A program made the translations under genes and the position numbers. Below, piece by piece: positions 2,283 to 62,366 of a DNA stretch of 64,000 nt (position 1 is its first letter; each line of letters opens with the position of its first letter). A model generated the notes under the pieces. It did not search any database. It was not told the origin of the DNA and worked only from the letters and a program-made list of their open reading frames with translations. This stretch comes from Ruminococcus sp. Its GTDB lineage: Bacteria > Bacillota > Clostridia > Oscillospirales > Ruminococcaceae. The stretch spans positions 52,093 to 116,092 of the forward strand of contig JAJBSV010000007.1 in NCBI GenBank assembly GCA_020861185.1. The letters run 5' to 3'.

Positions 2283-4397
2283 TCAAGAGCCGATTTTTCT
2301 TTTTATTTTCGCCCACAGCCCGCTCTTGTGCTTTATCTCCTCCGCAAGCTGGGTCTCTTCCTGCTGAAAGATTTCCTGACAGCTTCGAGGGCTCGAATTG
2401 TCCTTGATTCGGTGATAGGTTTCGTCGGGAGCCATCACACGGGCTTTCACGTTGTCGAGCCGGAGCTCGTCTATGATGTGCAAAAGGCGTTTGCGGGTTT
2501 CCTTGTCGGTAACGGGGCAGGCGACTTCGACTCGCCTTTCCGTATTCCTCGTCATAAAGTCCGCCGAGGCGATATAGAGCTTCGCGTCGTTGCCTCTGCC
2601 GAAGCAGTAGATTCTTGAGTGCTCGAGGTATCTTCCGACAATCGAGAAGACTTTGATATTGTCCGTCAAGCCTTCAATGCCCGGGAGGAGGCAACAGATG
2701 CCCCGGATATTCATGACAACCTCGACTCCCGACTGAGATGCCTCGGCGAGCTTGTCGATAATCTCCCGGTCGGTGAGGGAGTTGAGCTTCAGGAAGATAT
2801 AGCCGTCCGACTTCTTTTTAATCTCTTCGTCGATAAGCTCGATAACCCGCTCCTTAAGGCTGAAAGGCGATACAAGAAGATGCTGATACTTTCCATCTAA
2901 ATTGGCGGTCGCCATGTTCTGGAAGAGCAAAGCCGCATCCTCGCCGATTTCCTGATTGGCGGTCATGAGACTGAGGTCGGTATACTGCTTCGCGGTCTTC
3001 TCGTTATAGTTTCCGGTGCCAATCTGGGTGATGTATCTGACGTTCCCGCCGCCACGGCGGCTATGCTCCCTCTTCGTGATGAGGCATATCTTCGAATGAA
3101 CCTTGATGCCCTCGAAGCCGTAGAGGATGGTGCATCCTGCCTCCTTGAGACGCTCCGCCCAATAGATGTTGTTCTGCTCGTCAAAGCGGGCTCTCAGCTC
3201 CATCAGAACGACGACGTGCTTGCCGTTTTCCGCGGCGGCACAGAGATATTCGACGAGCCTTGCCCCTGCGGTGAGGCGGTAGATGGTAATCTTGATTGAA
3301 AGCACGCTCGGGTCGACCGAAGCCTCCGCAATCATCCTAAGAAACGGCTCCATCGACTCGTAGGGATAGAACATCAGGACGTCCTGCTTTTCGATTTGCG
3401 GGATAATCTTCTCGCTTTTGTTGAGATAGGGCGTGAAGTGTGGCTTGTAGACGGGGTCGCAAAGGGTCGCAACGCTTTCTTTCGGCAACAAGTCGCTGAG
3501 TGAGAATAAATAATCAAGATGAATCGGGCACTTTGTCGTGAAGACCTGCTCACGGCTGAGTGAAAGCGTCCTGCAAAGCGTCGTGATGAGCTTTTCGCTG
3601 AGAGTCCCCTCGATTTCGAGACGGACGGGCGCCAGACGGCGACGCTTTTTCACTATCTTCTGCATAAGCCGCCTGAAATCGGTCTCGACGTCGTATGCCT
3701 CGTCTTCGGGCGAGATGTCGGCATTACGGGTCACGGAAATGATTGCTTTCTCGGTGATTTCATACTCTGGGAAGACAAGGCTTGCGAACTCGCAGAGAAT
3801 GTCCTCCGTCAGAATGAAGTGCACGCCTCTTTCGTCAAGCCTTACGAACTTCGGAAGCTCATTCGGCACCGGAAGTATCCCGATGAGCTCCTGACCGTCC
3901 CGCTTGAGGGACAGGATTATATTGAGCCCCTTGTTCGGCAGATGCGGGAAGGGGTTGTGCATGTCGACAATCTGCGGCGAAAGAATCGGTCGGGCTTCGT
4001 CCTCGAACCATAGCGTAACCTGCTTTTTCGCCTTCTCGCTAAGGTCTCCGTAGGAAAATCTGCATATGTTGCACGCCCGGCAGAGGGATTCGAGCTCCGC
4101 CATTACTTTATCTCTTTTTTTGTATAGTGGTATCAGCGCCTTGAATATCGCCGAGAGCTGTTCCGAGGGCGTTTTGCCGGTCTTGTTGTCGATGTGCTCT
4201 TCTTTTAGTAAGCTCATATCGTGAAGTGACCCGACGCGAACCATGAAGAATTCATCCAGGTTGGAAGTGAAAATCGCCGCGAACTTGAGCCGCTCCATCA
4301 GCGGCACGCTCTCGTCCTTCGCCTCCTCGAGAACTCTTTCATTGAACCGAAGCCAGCTTAATTCTCTATCTTGAGTATACCTCAAATCCTTATCCAT
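2283..4397 (-). CDS. ppk: polyphosphate kinase 1
   Basis: DRELSWLRFNERVLEEA, FTSNLDEFFMVRV, and two PLD-like C-domains (KVHSKICLI, LEHSRIYCF). The ATG at 4397 has a GGGGAAGGG RBS; the listed start at 4415 is a TTG. Confidence 0.9.
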   Translation of the reverse strand: MDKDLRYTQDRELSWLRFNERVLEEAKDESVPLMERLKFAAIFTSNLDEFFMVRVGSLHDMSLLKEEHIDNKTGKTPSEQLSAIFKALIPLYKKRDKVMAELESLCRACNICRFSYGDLSEKAKKQVTLWFEDEARPILSPQIVDMHNPFPHLPNKGLNIILSLKRDGQELIGILPVPNELPKFVRLDERGVHFILTEDILCEFASLVFPEYEITEKAIISVTRNADISPEDEAYDVETDFRRLMQKIVKKRRRLAPVRLEIEGTLSEKLITTLCRTLSLSREQVFTTKCPIHLDYLFSLSDLLPKESVATLCDPVYKPHFTPYLNKSEKIIPQIEKQDVLMFYPYESMEPFLRMIAEASVDPSVLSIKITIYRLTAGARLVEYLCAAAENGKHVVVLMELRARFDEQNNIYWAERLKEAGCTILYGFEGIKVHSKICLITKREHSRRGGGNVRYITQIGTGNYNEKTAKQYTDLSLMTANQEIGEDAALLFQNMATANLDGKYQHLLVSPFSLKERVIELIDEEIKKKSDGYIFLKLNSLTDREIIDKLAEASQSGVEVVMNIRGICCLLPGIEGLTDNIKVFSIVGRYLEHSRIYCFGRGNDAKLYIASADFMTRNTERRVEVACPVTDKETRKRLLHIIDELRLDNVKARVMAPDETYHRIKDNSSPRSCQEIFQQEETQLAEEIKHKSGLWAKIKRKIGS

Positions 4398-21992: not shown

Positions 21993-22022
21993 TTGACAAA
22001 TATCAGGAACATATGATATAAT
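21993..22022 (+). promoter_or_regulatory. sense promoter of cassette 1
   Basis: TTGACA (21993) - 18 nt - TGaTATAAT (extended -10; TATAAT at 22017). Confidence 0.65.
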
Positions 22023-22081
22023 ATCAGTAGCAAGCGAGTTGAAGCGGTTTGACCTTCGATAAAACTGAGGAGGTGGCTGCT

Positions 22082-22186
22082 ATGACGATTTTCGAAGTTA
22101 TTACGACGGTTTTATCTATCGTTAATCTGATGGCGGACATAGTACTTGGCATTCTTGGTCTTCGGACTGGGAATAAAAAGAAATAA
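22082..22186 (+). CDS. 34-aa hydrophobic Lys-tailed peptide (type I toxin-like; possibly holin-like-toxin family)
   Basis: MTIFEVITTVLSIVNLMADIVLGILGLRTGNKKK. SD GAGGAGGTGG lies 6 nt upstream. Not in the ORF track because it is too short. Confidence 0.65.
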   Translation: MTIFEVITTVLSIVNLMADIVLGILGLRTGNKKK

Positions 22187-22294
22187 CCGCCCGGCTTAAC
22201 TCATAAAGGGACGGTCGATTTCCAAACATAGTGCTACCGTGAGTAGCACATTTTAGGTCGAGCCGCACTGAGTGACGTTCAGTCCAACTCTCTT
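22170..22294 (-). ncRNA. predicted antisense RNA of cassette 1 (ends approximate)
   Basis: Starts about 7 nt after the minus-strand TATAAT. A possible stop is at the U-rich tract UUAUUUCUUUUUAUU, antisense to the KKK-stop codons. Confidence 0.35.
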
Positions 22295-22300
22295 GCTATT

Positions 22301-22329
22301 ATTATACCCTATCGCTGCCCGATTGTCAA
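22301..22329 (-). promoter_or_regulatory. antisense promoter of cassette 1
   Basis: Minus strand: TTGACA (22329..22324) - 17 nt - TATAAT (22306..22301). Confidence 0.65.
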
Positions 22330-22337
22330 CAGCTTTT

Positions 22338-23237
22338 TTATTTTCCGAGGAGCTCTTCAAACTCTTCCTTCGTGCAGAACGTCGTCCCTTCATGCGAGAT
22401 TGCTCCCGCCGCTGTGGTGACGGCGTACTTGAGGACGTCTTCGAGAGGCAAGTTCTTGGTCAGGGCAAGGATTGCCCCGGCAAGCATGTTGTCGCCCGCT
22501 CCCGAGGTGCTCTTGACAGGCACCTTCATAGCCGGAGCCTTGTGGCACTCGGCTTCGGAGACGATAATCGCCCCTTCTGCACCTCTTGAGACCAAGACAA
22601 CCTGCACGCCGTAATCCGAAATTATCTTTCTCGCCGCCGAGATTATCTCACTTTCGGTGGAAATCTTCCCGACGAGCGTTTCAAGTTCAAAAATGTTCGG
22701 CTTTATCATGAAGGGATGCGCCTTCAAGCCTTCTCTCAGGAGTTCGCCTTGTGCGTCCAGAATCACTTTTGCATTCGAGAGTTCACCAAGTTCACGATAA
22801 ATATCACTTCCGACGCCCTTCGGGACGCTCCCCGCAAGGACGATAAACTCGCTGTCCCCCGAGGATTCGGCAACCGAAGCCTTCAGCGCCTCGATGCTCT
22901 TTTGTGTAACTTCGGGGTTCGACTCGTTGATTTCAGCAGTCCTGCCGAGCTCGGTCTCCATAATCTTAAGATTCGTTCTGAGCGAACCCGGGCACTGGGT
23001 AAACTTGCACTCGGTACCCTCACTCCCGAGGGTTTCGGGGATAGCTTCCCCGCCGTCGAAATTGAAGCCGAGAGCACGGCTCGGGACTCCCAATCTCGAA
23101 AGAGCTCTGCTCACATTGATTCCCTTGCCGCCGATGTCGAGGCTCACAGGCTCGACCCGGTTCATGGCATCGAGGTCGAGCTTCCCGGTCTTGACCGTCT
23201 TGTCAAGACACGGGCTGAGAGTTACCGTAGTAATCAT
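22338..23237 (-). CDS. PfkB-family sugar kinase (1-phosphofructokinase / tagatose-6-P kinase type)
   Basis: DIGGKGINVSRAL and a C-terminal GAGDNMLAG motif. Confidence 0.8.
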   Translation of the reverse strand: MITTVTLSPCLDKTVKTGKLDLDAMNRVEPVSLDIGGKGINVSRALSRLGVPSRALGFNFDGGEAIPETLGSEGTECKFTQCPGSLRTNLKIMETELGRTAEINESNPEVTQKSIEALKASVAESSGDSEFIVLAGSVPKGVGSDIYRELGELSNAKVILDAQGELLREGLKAHPFMIKPNIFELETLVGKISTESEIISAARKIISDYGVQVVLVSRGAEGAIIVSEAECHKAPAMKVPVKSTSGAGDNMLAGAILALTKNLPLEDVLKYAVTTAAGAISHEGTTFCTKEEFEELLGK

Positions 23238-24647: not shown

Positions 24648-24676
24648 TGTTGACATCAAGCGAAGCGTATGATATA
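24648..24676 (+). promoter_or_regulatory. sense promoter of cassette 2
   Basis: TTGACA (24648) - 17 nt - TGaTATAAT (TATAAT at 24671). Confidence 0.7.
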
Positions 24677-24738
24677 ATAACCTCGGTAAGAGAGCGAAAA
24701 ACGGCTTGACCTTTGATAAAACTAAGGAGGTGGTCGTT

Positions 24739-24831
24739 ATGACGATTTTAGAAGTGCTCGCACTACTTAATCTGATTACGAACATAGTACTTGGCATTCT
24801 CGGCTTAACCTCCGGGAATAAAAAGAAATAG
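24739..24831 (+). CDS. 30-aa hydrophobic Lys-tailed peptide (type I toxin-like)
   Basis: MTILEVLALLNLITNIVLGILGLTSGNKKK, with SD AAGGAGGTGG upstream. Confidence 0.65.
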   Translation: MTILEVLALLNLITNIVLGILGLTSGNKKK

Positions 24832-24935
24832 CCGAGAGCTAGAGTAAAAGTCCCGACCAATTCCGATTTTAGTGCATCCCTCACAGGAGCACATATTAGT
24901 TGAGCCGGAGCTGTTACCGGCAGCTCCGCTCTCTT
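24815..24935 (-). ncRNA. predicted antisense RNA of cassette 2 (ends approximate)
   Basis: The 5' AGAGAGC can close onto GCUCUCGG just before UAUUUCUUUUUAUU. Two internal hairpins: GGAGCUG/CAGCUCC and GUGC/GCAC. Confidence 0.35.
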
Positions 24936-24941
24936 ACTGTT

Positions 24942-24970
24942 ATTATACCCCATCGCTGTTGCTTTGTCAA
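24942..24970 (-). promoter_or_regulatory. antisense promoter of cassette 2
   Basis: Minus strand: TTGACA (24970..24965) - 17 nt - TATAAT (24947..24942). Confidence 0.7.
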
Positions 24971-25001
24971 CAGCTTTTTTATTGGGTTTAAAAGGTATTT
25001 T

Positions 25002-27490: not shown

Positions 27491-27895
27491 TTACATCAAT
27501 TCCAAAAATTCACCTACACCGATAATTCTCGGGTCGGTTATATTCGATTCCAAAAAATCCTTGTCTCCCGTTAAAAACAAATCCGCATGGGCATCAAGTG
27601 CCGCTCTGAGAATCGGGCGGTCTTTAGGGTCGCGGATTTCTTTTTCAACATCGGTTTCTTCCTCCGGTGTCTTGACAAGACGGATATATGAAAGCGCATT
27701 GTACAAAAACGCTTCCATCTCGGTTATGCGCTCGGGGAACTTTTCTCTGAATTTTCTATGCAATTCATCCACAACATAATCACAGACAATCGGCTGAAAC
27801 GGCGGGTTTACCGCTTTATAGAAAGCGGAAGCAACCTTGCCGTTCGGGAAAAGAGCCGCAGAAATGATTATGTTAGTATCGAGCATAACTCTCAT
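27491..27895 (-). CDS. PIN-domain toxin (type II TA, VapC-like)
   Basis: MLDTNIIISA N-terminus and conserved acidic residues (LTGDKDF). Overlaps the upstream antitoxin gene by 4 nt. Confidence 0.75.
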   Translation of the reverse strand: MRVMLDTNIIISAALFPNGKVASAFYKAVNPPFQPIVCDYVVDELHRKFREKFPERITEMEAFLYNALSYIRLVKTPEEETDVEKEIRDPKDRPILRAALDAHADLFLTGDKDFLESNITDPRIIGVGEFLELM

Positions 27896-28164
27896 TCTTC
27901 GTTTTCCTCACGTCTTGAAGCAGTAATCCACTCCGCAACATCATCCTCAGAGTTGAAGCCGGCTTTTTTGGCTTCACCCTTCATCTGCTCCTGAAATTTC
28001 TGCATAGCATAAACAGCCGAATTGACGACCTTTACCGTTCCGTTTTCGAATATGAACGTCACACGGTCTCCCGTTGAAATACCGAGAGCCGCCCGAATAT
28101 TCTTCGGAATTGTGACCTGTCCCTTGGACATCACTCTTGCATCGTTTACCAATACATCAGGCAT
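27892..28164 (-). CDS. AbrB/SpoVT/MazE-family antitoxin
   Basis: SKGQVTIPKNIRAALGISTGDRV swapped-hairpin motif. Confidence 0.75.
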   Translation of the reverse strand: MPDVLVNDARVMSKGQVTIPKNIRAALGISTGDRVTFIFENGTVKVVNSAVYAMQKFQEQMKGEAKKAGFNSEDDVAEWITASRREENEE

Positions 28165-28188: not shown

Positions 28189-28244
28189 GTAGGAAAGTAG
28201 GAATTTCCTACTTTTATTATATCCTATCTTCGGCTTATTGTCAA
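28189..28244 (-). promoter_or_regulatory. promoter and palindromic operator of the AbrB-PIN operon
   Basis: Minus strand: TTGACA (28244..28239) - 17 nt - TATAAT (28221..28216). The perfect palindrome GTAGGAAtTTCCTAC (28197..28211) sits at the predicted start site, next to an AGTAGGAA direct repeat. Confidence 0.6.
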
Positions 28245-28306
28245 TCGTTTTCTATTCCGAGAGTTTGCTTCGCAAACTCTCTAAGTTCGACGCAGTCGAA
28301 CTTGTC

Positions 28307-30874: not shown

Positions 30875-30904
30875 TTGACACACTGGGGAAACATATGATA
30901 TAAT
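30875..30904 (+). promoter_or_regulatory. sense promoter of cassette 3
   Basis: TTGACA (30875) - 18 nt - TGaTATAAT (TATAAT at 30899). Confidence 0.6.
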
Positions 30905-30967
30905 GCTCGTAGCAAATGCGGGGACACGCGGGCGCACTCCAGTCTGAAAGGAAGGGAGTGATAGCAT

Positions 30968-31090
30968 ATGAGTATTACGGAAGTTCTTTTGCTTCTTGAC
31001 ATACTTCTGTCGGCTGTTTCCCACAGATGCGTAGCATCTATGTTATCAACTCGGTTCCCACCGAAAGAAATAACCGCATCTTGTAGTTAG
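30968..31090 (+). CDS. 40-aa divergent small ORF of cassette 3 (possibly a frame-shifted toxin remnant)
   Basis: MSITEVLLLLDILLSAVSHRCVASMLSTRFPPKEITASCS. The family-type C-terminus (..LGSHRKK-stop) is present only in the +1 frame. Confidence 0.4.
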   Translation: MSITEVLLLLDILLSAVSHRCVASMLSTRFPPKEITASCS

Positions 31091-31181
31091 CAAAGATAGC
31101 GGCTCTTCTCACATACTTAGTTATCACGGAGACGCTTGTTTATCTGAACTGACACTTCGGATGAAACTGTCCCCGTTTGCT
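31055..31181 (-). ncRNA. predicted antisense RNA of cassette 3 (ends approximate)
   Basis: Lies downstream of the minus-strand consensus promoter. Extent inferred by analogy with copies 1, 2 and 4. Confidence 0.25.
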
Positions 31182-31187
31182 ACCAAT

Positions 31188-31216
31188 ATTATAACTCCTC
31201 GCTGTTGATTTGTCAA
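31188..31216 (-). promoter_or_regulatory. antisense promoter of cassette 3
   Basis: Minus strand: TTGACA (31216..31211) - 17 nt - TATAAT (31193..31188). Confidence 0.65.
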
Positions 31217-31224
31217 CAGCTTTT

Positions 31225-32475
31225 TTATTTGACGCTGAACGTCTCCGATACATCAGACAGCACAATATCATCATCTGTGCAAACAATCGTGAATCCGTCG
31301 TAATAGACCGAATAGATTCCGTCTGCGGCGAGGGCTTCAAGCTTTGATTCGTCGAGGGTGTCGGCGATATAGGTGTCTGTCAGCCCGAGCAGCAGGTCGG
31401 CGCAGGTCGCTGAATCGGAATAGAGCACCAGGTCCTCGGTTGCGGCTTTGCAGAGACCGTCGGTGGGATCGATATAGGGGTTTCTCGTTTCGCCGTCCTC
31501 ATAGGTATAGTAGCGCAAAGCGTCGTCCGAGGTGATTGCATAGTCATGTGCGTAAACAAAGCTCATCGCACCTTCATAAATCATATCGGCGACCGAATAA
31601 ACGGTGTCGCCCTCCCTCGAATAGAGAGTATAGGAAAACAGCTCGTCGCAACCGCCAAGGTTTCTGGTGAAGCCGTCGGCAGAGCCGATTATTCCGGCGG
31701 TATAGCCGTTTTCAATCATCACATCCGAAATATAGTCGACAACAAACGCGTTCGTCATCCACGAAAAGTCGATGAAGCTGTCGATTCCCATCTCTTCGGC
31801 ATACTTAAGATACTCGTCCGAAACGTTCAATATAACCGTGTTGTCCTCAAGAAACTCCAAAGCTACATGCTCGTCCGTGCCGACGAACCCGAGAACCTCG
31901 GCGAAATACTCCGCCTCGACGTCGTTATAAAGCGGGTCGAATTCCTTCGCCTGCCAGTCTTCATCCGAGAAGAAAAGGCTCTCGTATTCCGAATAAATCG
32001 GTCCGAGATAAATCTCACGTCCGCCACTCTCAACCATCGTCTCAAGTGCCGAATAGAGCACCTCGTCGACCACTATTTCCTCATTCGGGTGGTTGTTTAT
32101 ATACCAGACGTTAAAGACATATTCATATTCCGTGTCGGGCGTGAAGAGCTGATAAGCCGTTTCGCAGGCATCCGAATAGATGACGACTATCGCCTTGCGC
32201 TCGGTAGTCGCAGATTCACTTCCAGCGCCGATGTCGTACATAAACGTGAGCTCCGTCGCGACGCTCAGGTCGTCGACGTCCGCCTCTATCTCCTGCCAGC
32301 CGTCCGTGCCGGAAAAAAGCTCGTTGATGGCATAGCCAAACGCCGTTGCCGCAATCAGCACCAGGAGTACAACCGCGACAATCCGAAGACCGATATGCGA
32401 GGTCGAAATCTCGACGTTCTCGACCGGCTTAGGGCTCAAGTTACTTGTATGAATTCGTGACCTTGTAGATTTCAT
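31225..32475 (-). CDS. hypothetical membrane-anchored protein (416 aa)
   Basis: N-terminal TM segment (LRIVAVVLLVLIAATAF) and an acidic ectodomain. I recognise no family. Confidence 0.5.
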   Translation of the reverse strand: MKSTRSRIHTSNLSPKPVENVEISTSHIGLRIVAVVLLVLIAATAFGYAINELFSGTDGWQEIEADVDDLSVATELTFMYDIGAGSESATTERKAIVVIYSDACETAYQLFTPDTEYEYVFNVWYINNHPNEEIVVDEVLYSALETMVESGGREIYLGPIYSEYESLFFSDEDWQAKEFDPLYNDVEAEYFAEVLGFVGTDEHVALEFLEDNTVILNVSDEYLKYAEEMGIDSFIDFSWMTNAFVVDYISDVMIENGYTAGIIGSADGFTRNLGGCDELFSYTLYSREGDTVYSVADMIYEGAMSFVYAHDYAITSDDALRYYTYEDGETRNPYIDPTDGLCKAATEDLVLYSDSATCADLLLGLTDTYIADTLDESKLEALAADGIYSVYYDGFTIVCTDDDIVLSDVSETFSVK

Positions 32476-40951: not shown

Positions 40952-41189
40952 TAGACCTCGCAAATTTAGGCGATAATGCAAAAAACGTCGCCGATTTTTC
41001 ACGGCATTTTGGACAATTTGAAGGTTGCAAAATCCGAAAAGTAAGCGAAACTGGAAGCCTTTGTAAAGGAAACATAAAATCCGCCATGACGGTTCGTGTA
41101 CGAAAAAATTCATATTCGGCAATTTTTCGGGCGGAAGGGTGAGGATTTTGCAAGTTTGAGATTTCAATAATTCATGGCAGGGGAATAAA

Positions 41190-41260
41190 TGTAGGGGCGG
41201 ATATCATCCGCCCGTTTGTTGGTTGACTGCTGGTTCGGGCGGATAATATCCGCCCCTACA
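41190..41260. repeat. REP1 palindromic element, copy B
   Basis: TGTAGGGGCGGATATCATCCGCCCG - 21 nt - CGGGCGGATAATATCCGCCCCTACA. Confidence 0.85.
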
Positions 41261-45984: not shown

Positions 45985-46014
45985 TTGACAACGTGTTCGA
46001 ACATATGCTATAAT
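45985..46014 (+). promoter_or_regulatory. sense promoter of cassette 4
   Basis: TTGACA (45985) - 18 nt - TGcTATAAT (TATAAT at 46009). Confidence 0.65.
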
Positions 46015-46071
46015 GCTTGTAGCAAGAGAGCACGGCTTGACCTTTTACATTTGTAAAGGGAGGTGGCTTGT

Positions 46072-46164
46072 ATGACATTTGCAGAAGTTATTCTTTTGTT
46101 GAATTTCATCTCGTCCATCGTCTTTGGAATTCTCGGTTTAACGACCGGGAACAAAAAGAAATAG
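46072..46164 (+). CDS. 30-aa hydrophobic Lys-tailed peptide (type I toxin-like)
   Basis: MTFAEVILLLNFISSIVFGILGLTTGNKKK, with SD AGGGAGGTGG upstream. Confidence 0.65.
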   Translation: MTFAEVILLLNFISSIVFGILGLTTGNKKK

Positions 46165-46270
46165 CCGAGAGCTAAAGTAACAAAGTCCCCGACCAATTCC
46201 ACTTTTAGTGCAGCCTTGAGTTGCACATTTAAGGTTGAGTCGAGGCTGTTCGCAGCAACCCCGCTCTCTT
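46150..46270 (-). ncRNA. predicted antisense RNA of cassette 4 (ends approximate)
   Basis: Lies downstream of the minus-strand consensus promoter. It is complementary to the sense 3' UTR and the stop-codon region. Confidence 0.35.
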
Positions 46271-46276
46271 GCTTTT

Positions 46277-46305
46277 ATTATAACCCATCAAGGCTATTTT
46301 GTCAA
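46277..46305 (-). promoter_or_regulatory. antisense promoter of cassette 4
   Basis: Minus strand: TTGACA (46305..46300) - 17 nt - TATAAT (46282..46277). Confidence 0.7.
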
Positions 46306-46333
46306 TAGCCTTTTTTATTTGCTCAATAGGGGC

Positions 46334-49202: not shown

Positions 49203-49288
49203 TGGTGGGAGAGGATGGATTCGGACCATCGAAGCTGAAAAGCAACAGATTTACAGTCTGCCCCCTTTGGCCACTCGGGAACTCTCCC
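49203..49288 (-). tRNA. tRNA-Tyr (GUA), class II with long variable arm, CCA encoded
   Basis: Reverse complement: GGGAGAG..CCCGAGTGGCCAAAGGGG..GACTGTAAATC..long variable arm..GATGGTCCGAATCCATC CTCTCCC ACCA. Confidence 0.9.
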
Positions 49289-49323
49289 ATATTTGATTTA
49301 CAGAAAGCCATCAGGCTTACTTG

Positions 49324-49399
49324 TGGAGCTGGTGGACGGACTTGAACCCCCGACCTGCTGATTACAAATCAGCTGCTCTACCAACTGAGCTACACCAGC
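49324..49399 (-). tRNA. tRNA-Thr (UGU), CCA encoded
   Basis: Reverse complement: GCTGGTG TA GCTCAGTTGGTAGAGC A GCTGA TTTGTAA TCAGC ... CACCAGC T CCA. One G-G mismatch in the T stem. Confidence 0.88.
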
Positions 49400-62270: not shown

Positions 62271-62293
62271 GTTGATTTCCTCCAATGATTTAT

Positions 62294-62366
62294 TGTAGGG
62301 GCGGATATCATCCGCCCGTTATTTCGTCGCGATGGCAGGTTCGGGCGGATAATATCCGCCCCTACA
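62294..62366. repeat. REP1 palindromic element, copy C
   Basis: TGTAGGGGCGGATATCATCCGCCCG - 23 nt - CGGGCGGATAATATCCGCCCCTACA. Confidence 0.85.

Follow-up and report, generated by a model that had tools for sequence, protein, structure and literature searches.

It was found that a stretch of Ruminococcus sp. DNA (NCBI GenBank assembly GCA_020861185.1, contig JAJBSV010000007.1, positions 52,093 to 116,092 of the forward strand) carries four similar toxin/antisense-RNA cassettes, all on the plus strand. The whole stretch of 64,000 nucleotides is called the window here and is numbered from its first letter. In the sense RNAs of these cassettes, the first nucleotides pair with the segment just upstream of the terminator in a long-range helix, P1, and a second long-range helix, P2, is located slightly inward. 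P1 and P2 are present in thermodynamic predictions, are conserved, covary, and are constrained on the sense strand. The sequence contains the open reading frame (ORF) of a small hydrophobic peptide with its own promoter and Shine-Dalgarno (SD) sequence, and a predicted antisense gene with a promoter and a terminator, as in type I toxin-antitoxin systems. Each cassette is probably a chromosomal type I toxin-antitoxin module that works in the manner of bsrG/SR4. The features of the cassettes are as follows, with copy 2 in detail; UTR stands for untranslated region, and A5 is the alignment of relatives described below.

21993-22342, plus strand: copy 1 cassette; P1 arms 22027-22041 and 22285-22299, with one C·U mismatch; ORF 22082-22186 (34 amino acids)
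24650-24983, plus strand: copy 2 cassette, one of the four; the site noted beforehand was 24648-24983
30875-31229, plus strand: copy 3 cassette; P1 arms 30909-30926 and 31168-31183, with a UG bulge; ORF 30968-31090, diverged or frameshifted relative to the family
45985-46318, plus strand: copy 4 cassette; P1 arms 46021-46031 and 46263-46273; ORF 46072-46164 (30 amino acids)
24650-24678, plus strand: copy 2 sense promoter, TTGACA, a 17-nucleotide spacer and TATAAT with an upstream TG; 12 of 12 matches to the sigma-70 consensus
24685-24696, plus strand: copy 2 P1 5′ arm GGUAAGAGAGCG, beginning at the expected +1; its partner is 24927-24938 in the minimum free energy and centroid folds, and A5 columns 4-14 covary
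24702-24710, plus strand: copy 2 P2 5′ arm CGGCUUGAC; its partner is 24899-24907 in the RNAfold structure
24726-24730, plus strand: SD sequence GGAGG, 8 nucleotides upstream of the ATG, read from the sequence; predicted to be mostly paired
24739-24831, plus strand: copy 2 toxin ORF MTILEVLALLNLITNIVLGILGLTSGNKKK, 30 amino acids, an ORF call
24832-24841, plus strand: copy 2 element CCGAGAGCTA after the stop codon, containing a second GAGAGC
24855-24864, plus strand: possible anti-SD segment in the 3′ UTR (the P3 partner of the SD sequence), tentatively placed from the RNAalifold consensus
24872-24892, plus strand: hairpin P4 in the mRNA 3′ UTR, the counterpart of antisense stem-loop SL2
24899-24907, plus strand: copy 2 P2 3′ arm GUUGAGCCG, from the RNAfold structure and the family pairing
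24908-24926, plus strand: hairpin P5 in the mRNA, the core of antisense stem-loop SL1, with AU/GC covariation
24927-24938, plus strand: copy 2 P1 3′ arm CGCUCUCUUACU; the predicted antisense RNA begins with 11-12 nucleotides complementary to it
24942-24970, minus strand: antisense promoter, 12 of 12 consensus matches; 3 nucleotides separate the -10 box from the P1 3′ arm, and the sense terminator hairpin contains the -35 box
24818-24937, minus strand: predicted antisense (antitoxin) RNA of about 120 nucleotides, with a single-stranded 5′ end, SL1, SL2, a terminator hairpin (about 24824-24864) and a U-tract
24955-24980, plus strand: sense intrinsic terminator, GCTGTTG...CAACAGC followed by T6

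A preceding reading of the letters alone (the sequence-only reading) had claimed that the 5′ end of the sense RNA is complementary to the pre-terminator segment and that the paired sequence differs from copy to copy. All four arm pairs quoted there were found at homologous positions. In all four copies, the 5′ arm begins 5-7 nucleotides past the sense -10 box, at about +1, and the 3′ arm stops 3-5 nucleotides short of the antisense -10 box. The copy 2 helix has 12 base pairs including a terminal G·U. P1 belongs to the minimum-energy RNAfold structure of all four sense RNAs, with z-scores from -5.1 to -5.6, and none of 100-200 shuffles folded as well. I also compared the longest perfect complement of the first 22 nucleotides with that in dinucleotide shuffles (n = 2000). 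The result was significant for copy 2 (11 nucleotides; 4/2000 shuffles) and copy 4 (11 nucleotides; 1/2000), weaker for copy 3 (8 nucleotides; 70/2000), and not significant for copy 1 (7 nucleotides; 357/2000). The weak results of copies 1 and 3 are due to the interruption of their P1 helices. Thus, the four window copies by themselves are suggestive, not conclusive, for P1, and the relatives are decisive. The energies of cognate and non-cognate arms among the four copies indicated partial specificity only. Since the copy 4 5′ arm slightly favours the copy 1 3′ arm, no insulation between the copies is claimed.

Relatives of the cassettes were collected in several ways. A scan with a peptide profile over one genome per species gave ten loci, all in metagenome-assembled genomes (MAGs) of Oscillospiraceae. 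A large protein collection, searched with a query extended N-terminally beyond 30 amino acids, held only 18 clusters of the cassette peptide, none of them named, and the contigs of these clusters led to more cassettes from gut assemblies, including a brushtail-possum metagenome. By applying nhmmer to all loci (numbered with L below), 32 distinct sense RNAs were obtained; two diverged cassettes found later, one in L049 and the second of a tandem in L005, bring the number to 34. A JGI metagenome scan with the peptide profile returned 30 pattern matches and no relatives. The DNA pattern GCTCTCTTGCTNNTATTATA matched 34 metagenome loci and one viral locus. Since nhmmer finds cassettes only in L049, the other loci are chance matches. 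The cassettes are intergenic and multicopy, often adjoin housekeeping genes (rpoBC, groESL, nusA), and in some cases form tandems, such as the three consecutive cassettes of L007.

The 32 sense RNAs were aligned with MAFFT to give A5. RNAalifold revealed five elements in A5: P1, P2, P3 (the SD region with a 3′ UTR segment), and the local 3′ UTR hairpins P4 and P5. For P1, 96.0% of the cells are paired and both sides have changed in 8 of the 11 pairs (28 cells, which are not independent events since many of the sequences are close relatives). None of 500 shuffles matched the observed pairing or covariation score, in a control that ignores this relatedness. When the partner was slid by 1-3 columns, the pairing fell to 36-53%. 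The mean ensemble probability of P1 over the 32 RNAs is 0.91. P1 was also assessed independently of the alignment, by pairing the first 24 nucleotides with the 26 nucleotides before the antisense -10 box. A duplex was found in all 34 cassettes, with a mean energy of -22.2 kcal/mol compared with -10.2 ± 3.2 kcal/mol for shuffled 3′ arms. Thus, the proposal that compensatory changes maintain the long-range helix, which had been made from the four copies, held when more copies were aligned. There are at least ten distinct P1 arm variants, every one of which is matched within its own cassette. They include the following (5′ arm/3′ arm).

AGCAAGAGAGCG/CGCUCUCUUGCU
GGUAAGAGAGCG/CGCUCUCUUACU (copy 2)
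GACAGAAGAGUG/CGCUCUUCUGUC
AGUAGAAGAGCG/CGCUCUUCUACU
AGCAGGAGAGUG/CGCUCUCCUGCU
GACGAGGGAGUG/CGCUCUCUUGUC, with three G·U pairs
GACAAGAAAGUG/CGYUUUCUUGUC
GUGAGAGGU/ACCUCUCAC
bulged variants: copy 3 and the cassette L007a

The second long-range helix, P2, was absent from the sequence-only reading. In the RNAfold structures of the four copies, CGGCUUGACC, about 5 nucleotides past the 5′ arm of P1, pairs with GGUUGAGCCG in the 3′ UTR. In A5, 95.8% of the P2 cells are paired, with many G·U pairs; both sides have changed in 5 of the 9 pairs, and 0 of 500 shuffles reached this. P3 is 90.9% paired in A5 and its covariation is weak. The internal 3′ UTR hairpins described beforehand, P4 and P5, are present as they were described, and P5 shows AU/GC covariation. 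In addition, the first half of the SD sequence forms the 3′ strand of a local hairpin, and the 5′ strand of this hairpin is the CC(UU) with which the P2 5′ arm ends on its 3′ side. Examples of this local SD hairpin are as follows.

copy 4: CCUUUUAC/GUAAAGGG
L004: CCUUUAC/GUGAAGG
L049: UCCCU/AGGGA

Is this pairing a property of the RNA or of the DNA? The P1 3′ arm is the template of the +1 region of the antisense RNA, so the complementarity of the arms is equivalent to both transcripts sharing their first bases, and this invites an explanation at the DNA level. The two ends have in common TTGACA, a 17-nucleotide spacer, TATAAT, and the same first transcribed bases. Together with the multicopy, intergenic and sometimes tandem occurrence of the cassettes, this would suit duplicated promoter modules, the operators of one regulator, or the terminal inverted repeats of a mobile element, of which the RNA pairing would be a by-product. 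Such a DNA-level origin is highly improbable. Between their -35 and -10 hexamers, the promoters at the two ends have unrelated spacers, and the 5′ side of P2 adjoins no promoter. Where only one side of a pair has changed, the difference is overwhelmingly G·U rather than A·C on the sense strand (21:4 in P1, 62:8 in P2, and 102:16 in P3). In contrast, the local hairpins P4 (14:8) and P5 (3:3), for which folding is possible on either strand, are symmetric in this ratio. Four paralogues of one genome carry different arms, each matched inside its own cassette, which a common trans-acting protein would not permit. Thus, the unrelated spacers, the G·U asymmetry and the cassette-specific arms place the constraint on the sense RNA and not on a DNA inverted repeat: the constraint on P1 and P2 acts on the sense RNA. 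The mobile-element or inverted-repeat reading in particular was ruled out by the unrelated promoter spacers and the G·U asymmetry.

The minus strand was folded from the predicted +1. The predicted antisense RNA is about 100-150 nucleotides in length and consists of a short single-stranded 5′ end, SL1, SL2, a long terminal hairpin, and UUUUU. Its predicted overlap with the mRNA spans P1, P5, P2, P4 and the stop codon. The terminator was assessed by per-sequence folds and by comparison of the strands. The terminator hairpin is present in all 32 relatives, and its stems hold 2-7 G·U pairs each. On the antisense strand, its mean energy is -16.2 kcal/mol, compared with -8.7 kcal/mol on the sense strand, and the antisense form is the more stable one in 32 of 32 cases (Wilcoxon p = 8e-7). 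RNAalifold recovered SL1 alone from the antisense alignment; the terminator was missed because subfamily indels break its columns.

The sequence-only reading had also pointed to a second GAGAGC right after the stop codon, which might compete with the 5′ arm for the GCTCTC in the 3′ arm and thus create mutually exclusive folds, that is, a structural switch. The element does sit there in copies 2 and 4 as well as in relatives from their subfamily, and its sequence complements the core of the 3′ arm. Its role as a competitor is quite unlikely, since it occurs in only one subfamily and covaries with the other half of the terminator, not with P1. CCGAGAGCTA is the 3′ half of the antisense terminator stem in the 30-amino-acid subfamily. 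The GAGAGC element is absent from the 34-amino-acid subfamily, which includes copy 1 and has CCGCCC/GGGACGG instead. In L003 (GAGAAC) and L041 (GAGGAG), the altered element can no longer pair with the unchanged P1 3′ arm but still completes the antisense terminator stem, and thus CCGAGAGCTA is read as part of the antitoxin terminator. On the antisense strand, the element is one half of a G·U-bearing hairpin followed by a U-tract, which is found in 32 of 32 relatives and is about 7.5 kcal/mol more stable than its sense counterpart.

The peptides of the cassettes have 30-34 amino acids, with a hydrophobic stretch and KKK; their ORFs have a GGAGG 8 nucleotides upstream and a promoter of their own with 12 of 12 consensus matches. 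The peptides of copy 1 (34 amino acids) and copy 4 (30 amino acids) are related to that of copy 2. The peptide is conserved with synonymous differences across the 18 protein clusters. Searches of Pfam and NCBIfam with the four cassette peptides matched no family. At the nucleotide level, AAAGAAATA (window 24821-24831; A5 columns 222-233), which comprises the final toxin codons and the stop codon, is invariant in 32 of 32 cassettes, even at synonymous positions. This invariance agrees with a second function of the segment, which would also provide the stem end and the U-tract of the antisense terminator, the U-tract being the complement of the KKK codons. In copy 3, the N-terminus is related, and the ORF leaves the family after about 17 codons; the C-terminal ...KK-stop of the family is readable only in another frame, past a stop codon. 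Copy 3 retains perfect P1 arms, both promoters, and both terminators. It is possibly a pseudogene, or a decaying toxin gene on an intact RNA scaffold.

The proposed working of the module is as follows. The perfect-consensus sense promoter would drive an mRNA of about 300 nucleotides for a hydrophobic peptide of 30-34 amino acids ending in KKK. A convergent perfect-consensus promoter, located between the last long-range helix and the mRNA terminator, would drive an antisense RNA of about 100-150 nucleotides, which would cover the entire 3′ UTR and the last toxin codons. The free mRNA would close on itself, with its first 11-16 nucleotides (P1) and a segment about 5 nucleotides inward (P2) paired with the 3′ UTR upstream of the terminator. 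The flush 5′-terminal helix would stabilise the toxin mRNA and, together with the sequestration of the SD sequence, would keep translation poor. By analogy with characterised systems, the helix may thus "lock" translation. Since antisense transcription starts with the P1 3′ arm, the mRNA and the antitoxin have their first bases in common, and by pairing with the 3′ UTR the antitoxin would replace the mRNA 5′ end in P1 and P2. Binding of the antitoxin would open P1 and P2 and provide RNase III with a long duplex. The CCUU released in this way may then lengthen the local hairpin over the SD sequence, as SR4 does to bsrG.

Several points weigh against this reading. The two +1 positions are predicted, as is the 3′ end of the antisense RNA, and the toxicity of the peptide and the repression by the antisense RNA are putative. 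The relatedness of the aligned sequences, mentioned above, also belongs here. The partner of the SD sequence is inconsistent among the single-sequence ensembles, whereas RNAalifold gives the 3′ UTR segment of P3. When the pairing of the SD sequence was modelled, the values for the free (0.68), antisense-bound (0.75) and nascent (0.73) states hardly differed, with a few SD positions mis-assigned. Since the three states are not told apart by this modelling, the mechanism is a hypothesis as far as translation is concerned. Lastly, the perfect P1 of copy 3, a putative pseudogene, suggests that P1 could serve the RNA pair independently of translation.

In Firmicutes, a helix that includes the very first nucleotide should shield an mRNA from 5′-end-dependent decay, and the corresponding bases would be unpaired in the antitoxin. 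A tentative further step can be taken from here. The antitoxin may be a built-in mimic of the mRNA 5′ end that acts by strand exchange, with the same 11-16 nucleotides protected in the mRNA and single-stranded in the antitoxin; I regard this as possible rather than likely. If it were true, the mRNA 5′ end would be exposed to 5′-dependent decay, an RNase III substrate would be built, and the ribosome-binding site would be re-sequestered, all simultaneously. The copy-specific arms would partly insulate paralogous modules from each other. The antisense promoter in the terminator and the antisense terminator in the last toxin codons would then make a distinct minimal variant of the bsrG design.

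Which known system do the cassettes resemble most? End-to-end pairing in type I systems is known, as the sequence-only reading had stated with reference to hok/Sok. However, the closest one is not hok/Sok but bsrG/SR4 of B. subtilis prophages (also bsrE/SR5), in which the same helix is opened by an antitoxin overlapping the 3′ part. Structure probing of the 296-nucleotide bsrG mRNA showed that nucleotides 1-35 pair with nucleotides 232-262, ending one nucleotide before the terminator (PMC3834814). With SR4 bound to the 3′ part, nucleotides 1-33 become single-stranded and the SD stem grows from 4 to 8 base pairs (PMC3834814), and SR4 promotes the RNase III-dependent decay of bsrG mRNA (PMC3834814; review PMC6562991). 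The cassettes share with bsrG/SR4 a toxin mRNA of about 295 nucleotides whose 5′ end is paired to the pre-terminator segment, a short local hairpin that holds the SD sequence, a convergent antisense RNA (predicted in the cassettes) that can pair with the 3′ part and thereby with the 3′ strand of P1, and a small hydrophobic toxin that begins with MTxxE and ends with KKK. Both the outer 5′-3′ helix and a hairpin of the SD sequence are part of the consensus of the Rfam family RF01412 (BsrG). This family gives the real bsrG locus 210 bits, and the BsrG peptide was confirmed in phage SPbeta. RF01412 is the only Rfam family that matched several cassettes on the correct strand (copy 2, L001, L010), with sub-threshold scores of 21-22 bits; no cassette reached the gathering score of 55 bits. 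An hhalign comparison of the family profile with BsrG gave a probability of 52% over 19 N-terminal columns. Thus, the resemblance to bsrG is architectural, and membership in the bsrG family and homology of the peptides are unproven.

The cassettes also differ from bsrG/SR4 in several respects. Their antisense promoter occupies the region between P1 and the sense terminator, with the -35 box in the terminator hairpin. The start of their antitoxin coincides with the outer end of P1, and the sense terminator is left uncovered. In contrast, SR4 (180 nucleotides) starts beyond the bsrG terminator and covers it (PMC3834814; locus sequence). In addition, the antitoxin terminator of the cassettes extends over the final toxin codons, two helices (P1 and P2) take the place of one long helix, and the hosts are Oscillospiraceae, not Bacillus.

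Like the cassettes, hok/Sok (with its fbi-tac pairing) and aapA1/IsoA1 (with a 5′-3′ long-distance interaction) have a full-length mRNA that is closed end-to-end with a sequestered SD sequence. A lock of the hok type would keep the full-length mRNA inert to both translation and antisense RNA until 3′ exonucleolytic trimming removes the 3′ arm. The existence and the covariation of the end-to-end pairing speak for such a lock, and hok and AapA1 employ locks of this kind (PMC3834814; see also PMC6733600). For the cassettes, it is nevertheless unlikely. Their antisense RNA targets the 3′ UTR with the 3′ arms and not a 5′ region exposed by processing, the arm is followed by a stable terminator hairpin, and trimming beyond the arm would also delete the target of the antitoxin. 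The architecture fits bsrG/SR4, where the antitoxin itself opens the helix. In contrast, the antisense RNAs of hok/Sok and aapA1/IsoA1 act at the 5′ part, activation needs 3′ processing, the hosts are Gram-negative, and hok has a leader ORF. The antisense promoter of the cassettes is at the 3′ end, and no overlapping leader ORF of the mok type was found in them. Rfam gave no match to hok/Sok or aapA1/IsoA1 in the cassettes.

Two further systems were compared with the bsrG/SR4-like module proposed here. In txpA/RatA of the B. subtilis skin element, as in the cassettes, the antitoxin overlaps the 3′ end and the duplex decays in an RNase III-dependent manner, with a probable loop-loop start, according to passages of PMC3531473. 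The same passages describe six stem-loops in txpA and mention no end-to-end P1, in which txpA differs from the cassettes (PMC3531473). Its toxin, of 59 amino acids, is another difference. No sequence or Rfam similarity to txpA/RatA was found in the cassettes. The par system (Fst/RNAI-RNAII) of the Enterococcus faecalis plasmid pAD1 also has convergent RNAs. A 5′ helix of the par toxin mRNA may stabilise that mRNA, as reportedly proposed by Shokeen et al. in 2009. par differs in having 5′ direct repeats and a shared bidirectional terminator (PMC3834814), whereas the RNAs of the cassettes interact wholly in the 3′ overlap and have a terminator each. The 3′ UTR of copy 2 is about 100 nucleotides in length.

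Some cassettes of the relatives have peculiarities of their own. A second tandem cassette at L005 880-1302, and at the same position in L006, has a diverged peptide MTLTEVLLLLELLFSVMFHLFDLWSDNHKRK and an extra 5′ UTR hairpin. It has the unusual P1 variant GACAGAAGAGUG/CGCUCUUCUGUC in common with its upstream neighbour. The shared arms suggest their local duplication or gene conversion. One subfamily (L007b, L008, L015b, L021, L035) has an insertion of about 26 nucleotides, GAUAGUUGCUUGCUAGCGGUGACUGUU, between the 5′ arms of P1 and P2 (A5 columns 15-41). A second UUGCUAGC inside GAUAGUUGCUUGCUAGCGGUGACUGUU could possibly pair with the AGCAAG of the 5′ arm to give an alternative local fold. At 2762-2946 (minus strand) of L049 lies a remnant cassette in which everything before the last toxin codons is missing. 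The 3′ UTR, the P1 3′ arm, the antisense promoter, and the terminator are all retained, and the remnant is a possible orphan antitoxin gene. The cassette at L033 4254-4604 lies at the edge of a prophage-like block with genes for a capsid protein and a GH25 lysin, which recalls the prophage location of the bsrG and txpA systems.

Other elements were found around the cassettes. A type II toxin-antitoxin operon, at 27491-28164 on the minus strand of the window, encodes a MazE-type antitoxin (90 amino acids) and a PIN-domain toxin (134 amino acids). Its promoter, at about 28200-28250, is similar to the antisense promoter of the cassettes and is followed by the palindrome AGTAGGAAATTCCTACT, a candidate operator. 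A fifth promoter-like repeat, at 28203-28257, was considered as a cassette and rejected, being part of this MazE/PIN operon. Two tRNA genes are located at 49206-49399 on the minus strand, and the L004 cassette has two tRNAs directly upstream. At gathering thresholds over the window, Rfam reported two tRNAs only. A repeated palindromic element, GTAGGGGCGGATATCATCCGCCC, occurs at 1158-1236, 41183-41260 and 62287-62366 of the window, and also beside cassettes in L002, L009 and L049. It is REP-like, forms pairs in opposite orientation, and is dispersed in this genome and in related MAGs, often just downstream of a cassette.

The cassettes would represent a type I toxin-antitoxin family of gut Oscillospiraceae, which are uncultured or poorly studied. 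The family is apparently undescribed, and no report of type I systems in gut Oscillospiraceae was found in the literature searched. The sequence-only reading had expected an independent example of end-to-end pairing with four natural variants. A new family member was indeed found, but the principle has already been established experimentally for bsrG/SR4. What the cassettes offer is a narrowly distributed family with a compact gene layout, and no new regulatory principle. The matched arm variants, at least ten in number, provide comparative support for an end-to-end helix that had been probed in one Bacillus system. The cassettes also exemplify the tight packing of two convergent RNA genes, in which promoter, terminator, coding sequence and pairing arms share bases.

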